DNA of 64,000 nt. Source: an uncultured Rickettsiales bacterium (GTDB lineage Bacteria; Myxococcota_A; UBA796; UBA9615). The number at the start of each line of letters is the position of its first letter. The stretch's first letter is position 1. Below the pieces are notes generated by a model. That model saw only the letters and a program-made list of their open reading frames with translations. It searched no databases and was not told the origin of the DNA. The stretch spans positions 2,374 to 66,373 of the forward strand of contig CAZEKB010000030.1 of NCBI GenBank assembly GCA_964512225.1. Direction: 5' to 3'. Made by a program: the position numbers and the translations under genes. This document shows positions 3,515 to 10,277 of the stretch, in pieces.

Positions 3515-4697
3515 AACGGCCGAACAGCGGTTTGCTGCCTCACACAAATCAAGCAGCCCTCCCCAGCCCTGCCTGCGCTCCTGTTCGTGTGTAGGCCTCG
3601 AGGTAGCGCTTGGCCTCGCGGACGAGGGTCTCGATGTCGGGACATCGATGGTTCCTCGTGACGGCGGTGTGGACGTCGAGCCAGACACGCTCGATGGGGT
3701 TCCCCTCCGGCGAATAGGGCGGCAGAAAGCAGAGCTCGATCTTGCCGCCGAGCGCCTTCAGGGCCCTCCGGGTCTTCTTGCTTCGGTGGATGATGTAGTT
3801 GTCGACGACGAGGTGCACGGTGCCGTGCAGGCGGTAGCGGCTCGCGAGTTCGTGCAGGAGCTTGATGAAGAGGTCGCTCGCCTTGCTGGGGCCATCGACG
3901 GCCACGAGGGTCTTCGTGGCCGGGTTGTAGGCGCCTGCGATGTAGTGCTTCTTGTTCCTGCCGGGCGTCATGACGGTCTCTCTCAGGCCCCGAGGCGCCC
4001 AGTCCGGGCCGAGCTTCGGCAGCAGGTGGATGTCGACCTCGTCGGCGTACAGGACCACGTCGCCTTTCGGGACGGCCGCGAGCCACCGAGCCAGTCGTCG
4101 GAGCTGCTCGGCTTGGTCCGCGGGAGCGAGGGCGATGGTCTGCTGTGGTCGGACTCGACGGCACCCGGCCTCTCGAAGCAGCGACCCATCTGCGAGACGC
4201 TCACTGCGACTCCGTACCGCCGTCGCACCTCGTGGCAGACCAGCTCGATGGACCATGTGGAGCGCATCCACCCGAAACGTCCGGGCTGCTCGGCCACCAG
4301 CGCGGGGAGAGCCGCGACGATCTCCATACGACGAGCCAGCCGATGTGTACCCGCCCGGCGGCGGTCTCGCAGACCATCCAGACCTCCGTCACGAAGCAGA
4401 TACTCGGTCCGCTGAACGGTCGAGCGAGCGCAAGCAAGGACGGAAGCAACCCGGCGCTGCGACAGGCCCGCAGCCCGCGCCAGCAGAATGGAAGCCCGTC
4501 GTCGCTCCACGAAGGACGGGGAGTGGTCTCGGAGGAGAACGAGGTCGTCCTCCAGGGCGAGGATCTTCACTACGATGGGGGTCACGGCAGCCTTCCGTGC
4601 GGGGTGGATGGTGTCGCAACCCCCTTCTCTCACGATTGGCTGTCGTTTTCGAGCCCCTCTCTCCATTGGAGGGGCCTCACATCGCTGGGAAGCCCTC
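3515..4697 (-). mobile_element. IS630-family (Tc1/mariner superfamily) insertion sequence, ~1.18 kb, with TA dinucleotides at both junctions (right junction inside CTAG).
   Basis: It contains both halves of an IS630 DDE transposase. Junctions read cTAaacgg at 3513-14 and cctcTAgg at 4698-99. Imperfect terminal inverted repeats are only loosely matched by eye (AACGGCCGAACAGCGGTTTG versus the reverse complement of CAGCGATGTGAGG). Boundaries are good to about +/-10 bp. Confidence 0.7.
3549..4666 (-). pseudogene. IS630-family DDE transposase split into two overlapping frames. orfA (3983..4666) holds the HTH/winged-helix N-terminus; orfB (3549..4271) holds the DDE catalytic domain.
   Basis: orfA reads LARAAGLSQRRVASVLACARSTVQRTEYLLRDGGLDGL...WSIELVCHEVRRRYGVAVSVSQ (paired HTH). 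orfB reads LLREAGCRRVRPQQ...VVLYADEVDIHL...LVVDNYIIH...PPYSPEGNPIERVW (D, D, E triad). The frames switch near 4185-4195 by a -1 shift with no slippery heptamer, so a frameshift mutation or a sequencing error is likelier than a programmed frameshift. Confidence 0.8.
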
Positions 4698-5476
4698 TAG
4701 GCGAGCGCCGCCAGGAGCGCGCTCAGGGTCGCGTCTTCGTCGGCGCGCGACGTGTCCACGTGCACCTCGGCGGTGCGATACAGCGGCTCCCGGGCGCCGA
4801 GGATCGCGCGCAGCTCCTGCATGGCGTCGGCGCGCCCCGCGACCGGCCGGCGGTCCCCCTGGGCGAGGACCCGGTTCATGTGGTCCGCGGGGCTCGCCTG
4901 CAGCCACACCGACCGACACCGCGATCGCACGACGTCGAAGGCGGGCGCGTTCTGGACCACGCCCCCCGAGAGCGCGACCACCAGGGGACGCCCCTCGTCC
5001 AGGAGGCGGCGCAGCGACGCGGCCTCGAGGCGACGGTAGTAGGCCTCGCCGTGCAGGGAGAAGATCTCGCCCACGGACATCCCCGCGACGTCCTCGATCG
5101 CCTCGTCCAGCTCCACGAAGTCGACGCCCAGAGCCCCCGCGAGCCGTCGCCCGAGCGTGGTCTTGCCCGCCCCGCGCAAGCCGAGCAGGGCGACGACCTC
5201 CGGCGGCGGTTCGACGACCCGGCCCGGCCGCTCCTCTACGAGCCGGGCCACGTCCACGTCCAGGGCCCGAGCCACCGAGGCGAGACGTCCGATGGAGATG
5301 TTCCCCCGTCCCGCCTCGAGCTCCGATACGAACCGGGGGCTCAGGCCCGACTCCGCGGCGAGCCGGCGAGCCGTCCACTGCAGCTGCATCCGTCGCTCAC
5401 GCACCCGGCGGGCGACCCGCGCAAGGATCGCGACGGCCTCGGGCCGGGGGGCCCTCCCGCGGGGTTCGGGGGTCAT
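4697..5476 (-). CDS. boxR: BoxR/BzdR-type transcriptional regulator: N-terminal XRE-family HTH plus a C-terminal shikimate-kinase-like effector domain.
   Basis: C-terminal 259 aa of ORF 4697..6901. HTH segment: QLQWTARRLAAESGLSPRFVSELEAGRGNISIGRLASVARALDV. Shikimate-kinase Walker A segment: LLGLRGAGKTTLGRRLAGALGVDFVELDE...LSGG. It is divergent from boxC across an 81-bp AT-richer gap. The domain architecture matches the benzoyl-CoA-responsive regulators BzdR/BoxR. Confidence 0.8.
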   Translation of the reverse strand: MTPEPRGRAPRPEAVAILARVARRVRERRMQLQWTARRLAAESGLSPRFVSELEAGRGNISIGRLASVARALDVDVARLVEERPGRVVEPPPEVVALLGLRGAGKTTLGRRLAGALGVDFVELDEAIEDVAGMSVGEIFSLHGEAYYRRLEAASLRRLLDEGRPLVVALSGGVVQNAPAFDVVRSRCRSVWLQASPADHMNRVLAQGDRRPVAGRADAMQELRAILGAREPLYRTAEVHVDTSRADEDATLSALLAALA

Positions 5477-5495
5477 GGGTGCGCAGTATATTGCT

Positions 5496-8719: not shown

Positions 8720-8723
8720 TTCG

Positions 8724-10277
8724 ATGGACACTCTCGGGAGCTTCCTCGCGGGGCGCTGGCAAGACGGCCGGGGCCCCCACGCAACGCTGCACGACCCCAC
8801 GACCGGCGAGGCGATCGCGCAGACGTCCACCCACGGCCTCGACTTCGGGGAGGCCCTTCGGCACGCCCGCGACGTGGGCGGACCGACCCTCCGAGGCATG
8901 ACCTTCGCGGAGCGGGGAGCGCTCCTCGGGGCGATGGCGTCGGCCCTGCACGATCACCGGGACGAGCTGCTCGCGCTGTCGACCCGGAGCGGCGGCAATA
9001 CCCGCGGCGACGCCAAGTTCGACGTCGACGGCTGCACCGGCACGATGGCCTGGTACGCGAAGCTGGGATCGACCCTCGAGGGCCGCTTCTTCGGCGACGG
9101 GGATACGATCCTGCTGGCGCGCAACCCGCGCTTCGTGGGGCGCCACGTGAAGGTCCCGCGCCACGGCGTCGCGGTGCACATCAACGCGTTCAACTTCCCC
9201 GCCTGGGGCTTCGGCGAGAAGGCCGCGTGCGCGATCCTCGCGGGCATGCCGGTCGTCACCAAGCCGGCGACGAGCACCGCCGTGCTCACGCACCGGATGT
9301 TCCGCATCCTCACGGACTCCGGGGTCCTCCCCGACGGCGTCCTGTCGCTCGTCTGCGGCTCGGCGGGCGACCTCCTCGAGCACCTCGAGTGCCAAGACGT
9401 CCTCGCCTTCACCGGCTCCGCCGACACCGGGATGTTCATCCGGGGCATGGAGCGGGTGCGGCGCATGGGCGTGCGGGTCAACGTGGAGGCGGACAGCCTC
9501 AACGCGGCCGTCCTGGGCGCGGACCTGGACCCCGACTCCGAGGGCTACCAGCTCTTCCTCCGCGAGGTCCTCAAGGATCTCACCCAGAAGGCCGGGCAGA
9601 AGTGCACCGCGATCCGCCGGATCTTCGTGCCTCGCGACTCGCTCGAGGGCGTGCGCGAGGACCTGCGGGAGGGATACGCGGCCGTCCGCGTGGGCGACCC
9701 CGCCGTCAAGGGCGTGCAGATGGGTCCCGTGGCGACGGCTTCGCAGCTGAAGGACGTGCGCGAGGGCGTCCGCGCGCTCGCCACCGCGGGCCGCTTGGTG
9801 CACGGCGACGGCGGCCCCGGCGAGCTGATCGGCGCGACCGACGAGGGGTACTTCGTGGGTCCCACCCTCATCGAGGTGTCGAGCATCGACGAAGGGGGCC
9901 CCGTGCACGACCTCGAGGTCTTCGGCCCGGTGCAGACGATCGTCCCCTACGACGGCTCGGCGGCCGAGGCCGTGAGGGGCGTGAGCAGGGGACAGGGCGG
10001 CCTCGTGGCGTCCATCTACACGGACGACAAGCGATTCGCCGCGGACGTGGTGATGGGCCTCGCGCCGTACCACGGGCGCCTCCACATCGGCAGCAGCAAG
10101 ATCGCCGATCACTCCACCGGGCCGGGCACGGTCCTCCCCCAGCTCGTGCACGGAGGCCCCGGCCGCGCGGGCGGGGGCGAGGAGCTCGGCGGGCTGCGCG
10201 GCCTCGACTTCTATCTCCAGCGCACCGCCATCCAGGGCCTCAAGCCGCTCGTCGAGCGAATCGCCGCGCCGGGCTGA
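8724..10277 (+). CDS. boxD: Aldehyde dehydrogenase consistent with 3,4-dehydroadipyl-CoA semialdehyde dehydrogenase BoxD (517 aa).
   Basis: ORF 8724..10277 has an ALDH fold with VTKPATSTAVLTHRMF, FTGSADTG and the catalytic Cys region GQKCTAIRRIFV. Its size and its position immediately after boxB fit BoxD. Confidence 0.8.
   Translation: MDTLGSFLAGRWQDGRGPHATLHDPTTGEAIAQTSTHGLDFGEALRHARDVGGPTLRGMTFAERGALLGAMASALHDHRDELLALSTRSGGNTRGDAKFDVDGCTGTMAWYAKLGSTLEGRFFGDGDTILLARNPRFVGRHVKVPRHGVAVHINAFNFPAWGFGEKAACAILAGMPVVTKPATSTAVLTHRMFRILTDSGVLPDGVLSLVCGSAGDLLEHLECQDVLAFTGSADTGMFIRGMERVRRMGVRVNVEADSLNAAVLGADLDPDSEGYQLFLREVLKDLTQKAGQKCTAIRRIFVPRDSLEGVREDLREGYAAVRVGDPAVKGVQMGPVATASQLKDVREGVRALATAGRLVHGDGGPGELIGATDEGYFVGPTLIEVSSIDEGGPVHDLEVFGPVQTIVPYDGSAAEAVRGVSRGQGGLVASIYTDDKRFAADVVMGLAPYHGRLHIGSSKIADHSTGPGTVLPQLVHGGPGRAGGGEELGGLRGLDFYLQRTAIQGLKPLVERIAAPG

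Follow-up and report, generated by a model that had tools for sequence, protein, structure and literature searches.

A predicted BoxR-controlled boxC-boxB-boxD operon in a high-G+C marine lineage, and linkage of boxA to boxB in a single clade of the sampled BoxB loci

The box genes encode the aerobic breakdown of benzoyl-coenzyme A (benzoyl-CoA), and the closest described systems to the locus considered here are the betaproteobacterial box regulons of Aromatoleum/Azoarcus evansii, Azoarcus sp. CIB and Paraburkholderia xenovorans, with Mycetohabitans rhizoxinica pBRH01 as exemplar. In Betaproteobacteria boxR stands with boxCBA, divergent from boxD-bclA (PMC6449761), and in Mycetohabitans bcl and a DUF4863 gene are read in one direction with boxR, boxC, boxB and boxA following one another in the other. 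The published BoxR motif is ATGCACTATAGTGCAT, found at multiple sites three to five turns apart (PMC6449761), with TGCA-N6-TGCA being an element of BzdR operators (PMC6678401). BoxA, an NADPH-dependent [4Fe-4S]/FAD reductase, acts transiently and is needed in minor amounts only (PMC4498308). A myxobacterial box cluster has already been published from Chondromyces (PMC10803450), and UBA5794 actinobacteria have been reported with 'boxBC' only (PMC12008989). Here we describe a box locus in a 64-kb stretch of marine metagenomic DNA (hereafter the window; G+C ~70%), the parent contig of which is the 192-kb ENA ERZ23498677 scaffold_66 (contig position = 142145 minus window position). JGI 3300007770 and some ten further assemblies contain the window sequence as well, on contigs of up to 341,892 bp.

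Genes were called with a codon-usage score, and the result was checked against the calls already stored for the contig. Curated NCBIfam equivalog or subfamily cut-offs are exceeded by the products of boxR (4697-5476, - strand; 259 amino acids (aa); NF006015, 270.5 bits, cut-off 204), boxC (5558-7213, + strand; TIGR03222, 747.6 bits, cut-off 712.3), boxB, encoding the diiron benzoyl-CoA 2,3-epoxidase (7277-8719, + strand; TIGR03225, 749 bits, cut-off 499.1) and boxD (8724-10277, + strand; NF008868, 675.4 bits, cut-off 444). In keeping with an earlier note on this DNA, the four gene identities hold and the regulator gene is divergent from boxC-boxB-boxD; the observation made in that note is confirmed while its interpretation is partly supported. 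The locus shares with the betaproteobacterial regulon its enzymes, the boxC-boxB order, the regulator family and an operator palindrome in multiple copies about three turns apart, with BoxB sharing 62-63% identity with its counterparts in Mycetohabitans and A. evansii and BoxC and BoxD likewise matching at equivalog level. It differs in that boxR is divergent rather than co-directional, boxD occupies the usual slot of boxA, and no boxA, bclA, lactonase or benzoate transporter gene lies nearby. The reading favoured here, to which we give a probability of roughly 80%, is that boxC-boxB-boxD is predicted to form a functional, BoxR-repressed operon of the aerobic 'epoxide' benzoyl-CoA pathway. As such the locus appears to be an intact, regulator-controlled gene set for oxygen-dependent benzoyl-CoA breakdown and largely ordinary, a further probable member of the known box system that would extend the BoxR/box regulon and its operator to a high-G+C marine lineage.

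The enzymes argue for an intact pathway segment. BoxB aligns with the solved BoxB of Azoarcus evansii (3PER/3PM5) with E = 4.7e-183, and the alignment revealed that all of the diiron ligands (E120, E150, H153, D211, E240 and H243) and the benzoyl-CoA contacts (Q116, T119, S123, F193, F203, F206 and T210) are kept, the residue list being that of PMC5489048. In comparison with locus L011 (CAZUHI01; 85% DNA identity) the ratio of nonsynonymous to synonymous substitution rates (dN/dS) was 0.09 for boxB, 0.10 for boxC, 0.10 for boxD and 0.21 for boxR, the values of 0.09-0.10 indicating that strong purifying selection maintains boxC, boxB and boxD. Membership of the box pathway is thus seen for BoxB, BoxC and BoxD from family cut-offs and, in BoxB, from the active-site residues. 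BoxB also gave a weak PF05138 match and matched 4MUD at 1.8e-9; it is a structural homologue of PaaA of the phenylacetyl-CoA epoxidase PaaABCE, from which it differs in being monomeric and benzoyl-CoA-specific (PMC4498308) and in the absence here of a PaaE-type reductase and of PaaB and PaaC subunits.

The regulator combines an XRE-type helix-turn-helix (HTH; HTH_3, residues 25-77) with a shikimate-kinase-like domain (SKI, residues 101-255) carrying the conserved P-loop GLRGAGKT, the architecture by which BoxR/BzdR proteins are recognised and which is shared with BzdR/BoxR of Azoarcus sp. CIB. BoxR is 38% identical to the annotated Mycetohabitans BoxR with similarity from residue 7 on, which favours the 259-aa start over a 230-aa alternative. 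Unlike the characterised BzdR/BoxR proteins of about 300 aa, its HTH and kinase-like domain are not joined by a long linker, pairwise alignment placing the linker about 41 aa shorter than that of Mycetohabitans BoxR (259 versus 306 aa). A rough survey suggests a short linker in many BoxR proteins of the divergent type; the regex measurement was too noisy to be relied on.

The region between boxR and boxC (5477-5557; 53% G+C) is 81 bp long, as stated previously, and its predicted BoxR operator is a pair of copies of the published BoxR palindrome GCAnTATAnTGC. Box 1 (GCAGTATATTGC; 5483-5494) agrees with GCACTATAGTGC at 10 of 12 positions and stops 6 nt short of the boxR start codon, while box 2 (GCATTATCTTGC; 5514-5525; with its flanks aGCATTATCTTGCA) agrees at 9 of 12 and lies 33 nt upstream of the boxC ATG, the two being spaced 31 bp apart. 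When GCANTATANTGC was searched with at most one mismatch, the 64 kb gave boxes 1 and 2 and no other match, where 0.07 would be expected. Alignment with the regions of L011, L058, L012 (JAAESI01) and L013 showed the two boxes as conserved blocks with a spacer that varies between them. Across 20 homologous divergent boxR-boxC regions, 33 sites matching GCACTATAGTGC at 9 of 12 positions or better were found, a density of 10.1 per kb where the other 362 kb of those loci have 0.124 per kb (~80-fold enrichment); the motif was present in 17 of the 20, usually as two sites 30-32 or 42-44 bp apart. The repeated TGCA-N6-TGCA palindrome of BoxR and BzdR operators (ATGCACTATAGTGCAT) is therefore represented by two boxes, in contrast to Azoarcus sp. 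CIB by two only, and in both of them the outer T/A of the TGCA half-sites is degenerate. The earlier suggestion that TGCA half-sites form part of the operator stands in so far as TGCA-type half-sites matter, the boxes fitting TGCA-N6-TGCA, but the region holds a single exact TGCA, at 5523. About 20 nt before the boxC ATG (CGTATCTTCCGCGCC-ATGGC; 5535-5563) are also conserved in L011, L012, L013 and L058 even though BoxB diverges by 22%; 5535-5563 shows no Shine-Dalgarno sequence, and the stretch may be a translation-initiation or regulatory element.

Taken together with the BzdR/BoxR literature, these features suggest a mode of control. BoxR dimers would bind the two 12-bp palindromic boxes, three helical turns apart in the 81-bp promoter region, and the TATA-like cores of the boxes would overlap the -10 regions of both promoters. 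Benzoyl-CoA binding to the kinase-like domain would then release the repressor. With box 1 only 6 nt from its start codon, boxR may be subject to autoregulation and have a leaderless mRNA. Judged from family membership and active-site conservation, BoxB would epoxidise benzoyl-CoA with O2 and two electrons, BoxC would open the ring to give 3,4-dehydroadipyl-CoA semialdehyde and formate, and BoxD would oxidise the semialdehyde to 3,4-dehydroadipyl-CoA. Genes located elsewhere would provide, in trans, the BoxB reductase, the benzoyl-CoA supply and the lower, beta-oxidation-like part of the pathway; since BoxA acts transiently and in minor amounts, an unlinked reductase is biochemically plausible.

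The genes for BoxA and benzoate-CoA ligase were sought across 83 kb, from -9.4 kb to +73.7 kb in window coordinates (9.4 kb to the left and 9.7 kb to the right of the window), with BoxA and Bcl queries taken from the annotated Mycetohabitans rhizoxinica pBRH01. For BoxA, tblastn gave no match across the 83 kb, and neither did a BoxA profile hidden Markov model (HMM) built from 14 BoxA sequences and searched against all stop-to-stop open reading frames (ORFs) of at least 50 aa around the locus; the Pfam tables of all called genes in the 83 kb contain no Fer4/FNR-type reductase. Likewise no Bcl homologue was found in the 83 kb. The sole AMP-binding gene, outside the window at ~67.1-68.9 kb, encodes a 614-aa acyl-CoA ligase that gave the only Bcl tblastn match (30% identity over 205 aa); as a candidate benzoate-CoA ligase it was rejected, being nearest to FadD11 (360 bits, cut-off 950) and below every cut-off. 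The two box pathway components thus went undetected around the genes, and the reported absence of boxA and a ligase from the window is upheld and extended: neither lies within about 10 kb beyond either end, and the ordinary split cluster that the earlier note had considered, with both genes immediately outside the window, was not seen. Genes for a family III CoA-transferase, the FadD11-like ligase and an SCP2 protein are present at 62541-63692 (- strand) and ~67.1-69.0 kb (L010, 4764-7074), about 52-59 kb from the box genes; the CoA-transferase is nearest to the succinate-glutarate type, below cut-off, and none of these CoA-thioester genes qualifies as a benzoate-CoA ligase.

This arrangement can be set in context through two samples of related loci. 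A scan of the GTDB species-representative genomes with the BoxB of the window yielded 43 loci whose BoxB proteins are 57-92% identical to it, the closest of which were labelled by their submitters 'uncultured Rickettsiales' or 'Proteobacteria' and most of the others Acidobacteriota, and JGI metagenomes scanned with a BoxB alignment contributed the 80 loci most similar to the window BoxB. The order C-B-D had previously been regarded as unusual. The boxC-boxB order is, however, the canonical one of boxCBA, so that here boxD takes the slot of boxA, and boxD directly 3' of boxB recurs in at least ten related loci (L011, L012, L013, L043, L053, L058, L059, L061, L064 and L067; G+C 0.52-0.70), most of the boxB-boxD loci falling within the window's own BoxB clade.

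Nor is the missing boxA peculiar to the window. Among loci whose sequence extends 1.5 kb or more past the 3' side of boxB, boxA was missing from 33/33 genome loci and 45/56 metagenome loci, 78 in all, proportions that come from samples ranked by similarity to the window BoxB and are not population estimates. In the 11 metagenome loci with boxA, the gene directly follows boxB and boxR, where visible, is co-directional and upstream, with none of the 20 divergent-boxR loci carrying boxA. When 111 full-length BoxB sequences were placed in a neighbour-joining tree (midpoint-rooted and without support values), 16 boxA-linked BoxB proteins formed one clade together with a single locus scored as 'unknown', L120, in which the BoxA HMM detected a truncated boxA at the contig end, giving 17/17 for the clade. 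Outside it, boxA linkage was seen in 0/73 full-length BoxB loci with adequate flank. With the exception of one clade, the sampled BoxB lineages all lack boxA as a rule, and the claim that its absence here is a notable feature is not sustained. Clustering of neighbouring ORFs yielded no conserved alternative reductase near boxB in the boxA-less loci, where the recurrent neighbours were TetR, enoyl-CoA hydratases, acyl-CoA dehydrogenase and DprA; benzoate-CoA ligase was also rare near the sampled loci. The predicted supply in trans would be in line with the boxA-unlinked box loci as a whole, a class of which the window locus appears to be a member.

Members of this class from Acidobacteriota (Pyrinomonadaceae/Blastocatellia) and Actinomycetota (Nonomuraea and the 'boxBC' of UBA5794) resemble the window in having boxC-boxB without an adjacent boxA, and usually without a ligase, and have BoxB proteins 57-66% identical to that of the window, but carry mostly TetR- or PaaX-type regulators and beta-oxidation genes in place of boxD, whereas the window has BoxR and a boxD in the operon. 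In Nonomuraea gerenzanensis (L055; NZ_LT559118.1, 5649765-5653854), boxB and boxC flank a divergently oriented PaaX-type regulator gene, and the whole 11.85-Mb record contains no match covering at least 80% of BoxA. That record is filed as a 'plasmid' in PLSDB and is evidently a chromosome. The Pyrinomonadaceae/Blastocatellia loci (L016-L035 and others; for example L018, 8016-19456) have boxC-boxB followed by a TetR gene, several enoyl-CoA hydratase genes, an acyl-CoA dehydrogenase gene and a FAD monooxygenase-like gene, with boxR, boxA, boxD and the ligase all missing; this content suggests that benzoyl-CoA is made there from CoA-bound precursors. The converse orphan situation was met on NZ_CP030763.1 (Rhizobium leguminosarum) and NC_015727.1 (Cupriavidus necator N-1), which gave full-length BoxA matches of 57% and 45% identity respectively and no detectable BoxB.

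Several points weigh against a functional BoxR-repressed operon. Each step of the proposed scheme is read from sequence comparison, neither the reductase for BoxB nor the source of benzoyl-CoA was found in the 83 kb, a consensus scan gave no sigma-70-like promoter, and the loss of about 41 aa of linker relative to the characterised proteins means that effector signalling could differ. The similarity ranking of the locus samples also counts here.

How BoxB would be reduced is where two alternatives survive best, and they were judged about equally likely. According to the first, which has a substantial but less than even chance, the locus is part of an ordinary split cluster with a canonical boxA and benzoate-CoA ligase elsewhere in the genome, possibly under another BoxR operator. 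The catalytic and transient action of BoxA (PMC4498308) is in keeping with this, as are the orphan copies of boxA/boxR and of bcl that other replicons of Cupriavidus and Paraburkholderia carry (PMC10803450) and the Rhizobium plasmid that has boxA without a detectable boxB. Set against it are the lack of boxA and ligase within 83 kb, the failure of any of the 78 related boxA-less loci to show boxA within 8-10 kb, and the 11.85-Mb Nonomuraea replicon on which boxB and boxC occur with no match covering at least 80% of BoxA.

The second alternative, held with the same tentativeness, is that BoxA is truly absent and BoxB is reduced by some other unlinked partner, such as a general ferredoxin or flavodoxin with its reductase, linkage to boxA being an acquisition of one, mainly proteobacterial, clade. 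The grouping of the 17 boxA-linked BoxB proteins in a single clade with 73/73 others lacking boxA would be consistent with this, and the Nonomuraea result agrees, as does UBA5794 with boxBC only (PMC12008989). No conserved alternative reductase gene accompanies boxB in the boxA-less loci, however, the tree is one that was midpoint-rooted without support values, and the view of a whole replicon comes from Nonomuraea only.

Immediately downstream of the operon, at 10315-10998 (+ strand), lies a gene for a fatty-acid hydroxylase family membrane protein (PF04116, 63.9 bits), the family being named sterol desaturase or ceramide fatty-acyl 2-hydroxylase in the sources. It had been described as standing 'instead' of boxA, and its participation in the system, as a stand-in for boxA or a modifier of a pathway intermediate, is very unlikely. 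The gene is on the same strand as boxD and begins 37 nt after it with no convincing terminator between them, the terminator scan giving matches no more frequent than in shuffles, such that it may be co-transcribed with boxD, and it is kept after boxD in the close relatives L011, L053 and L058. The family is nevertheless one of electron-consuming membrane diiron hydroxylases and not of reductases, the gene is not found after boxD in L012 and L013, and homologues at 53-54% identity (in a Sandaracinaceae metagenome-assembled genome (MAG) and in another metagenome) have unrelated neighbours. It is probably a syntenic lipid-metabolism gene, outside the box pathway, and a neighbour of boxD in close relatives only. 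Its nearest named homologues are from Sandaracinaceae, Polyangiales and Myxococcota MAGs (50-54% identity), and it is from the Myxococcota MAG homologues of this one gene that, indirectly, a Myxococcota-like lineage is suggested for the source of the DNA.

Even less credence attaches to the proposal that the operator is the 14-bp near-palindrome ATGTCGATCGTCAT (5496-5509). This sequence does occupy the middle of the divergent region, and L011, the closest relative, retains it in part and imperfectly. It falls inside the variable spacer between the two boxes, though, and is lost from L012, L013 and L058 where the flanking boxes stay; chance alone would give about 0.27 such 14-mers in a stretch as long as this one, and 8% of shuffled versions of it contain one. 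Being unconserved, no rarer than chance and unlike the published motif (PMC6449761), it was rejected as the operator in favour of the two GCAnTATAnTGC copies.

An insertion sequence (IS) adjoins boxR. The IS630-like element (3202-4719), with a split transposase encoded by a DDE_3 ORF (3549-4058, - strand) and an HTH ORF (3983-4666, - strand), is flanked by a hypothetical gene on one side and the 3' end of boxR on the other, and has candidate terminal inverted repeats at 3450-3462 and 4612-4624. The interval 3202-4719 is absent from L011 and L058, which are otherwise collinear with the window (by blastn; tblastx gave compositional noise in this high-G+C DNA), and the element is by this comparison a recent insertion that displaced nothing. 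As a cause of boxA loss it was rejected, the IS-free collinear relatives being equally boxA-less. That the locus is the decaying remnant of a box cluster after loss of boxA and the ligase, a view to which the adjoining IS lends some colour, is the least probable of all the alternatives given that the IS is recent and missing from L011 and L058, themselves boxA-less, and that the ORFs are intact with dN/dS ~0.1 and all catalytic residues kept.

Further downstream, a short-chain dehydrogenase/reductase (SDR) gene at 11011-11805 was considered as a pathway enzyme and discarded, the product being a generic SDR below all cut-offs and encoded on the opposite strand. At 12630-18703 (- strand) four co-directional genes encode a GNAT-methyltransferase fusion, two radical SAM/SPASM proteins and an 863-aa protein in which a GT4-type glycosyltransferase is fused to a radical SAM/SPASM domain, an unusual fusion.

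While the predicted boxC-boxB-boxD operon itself adds little, the class-level pattern, with boxA linkage in one BoxB clade, is modestly interesting. Since boxA is linked to boxB in one clade only among the loci sampled, the published boxR-boxCBA arrangement with divergent boxD-bclA is the minority architecture there. It is possible, and can be put forward tentatively, that there exists a broad class of box systems in Myxococcota-like marine lineages, Acidobacteriota and Actinomycetota in which BoxB would work without a BoxA orthologue via an unlinked donor, with BoxA being a proteobacterial-type addition and benzoyl-CoA arising from CoA-bound precursors rather than free benzoate. Such a boxA-less class does not appear to be described as a class in the literature searched, where a search on the absence of boxA in Actinobacteria and Acidobacteria gave only unrelated boxA/boxB/boxC topics. 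Genome predictions that demand boxA, or take the ligase as their anchor, would overlook or wrongly classify the majority of such box loci, and what physiologically donates electrons to BoxB outside Proteobacteria is now a question specific enough to be put to the test.

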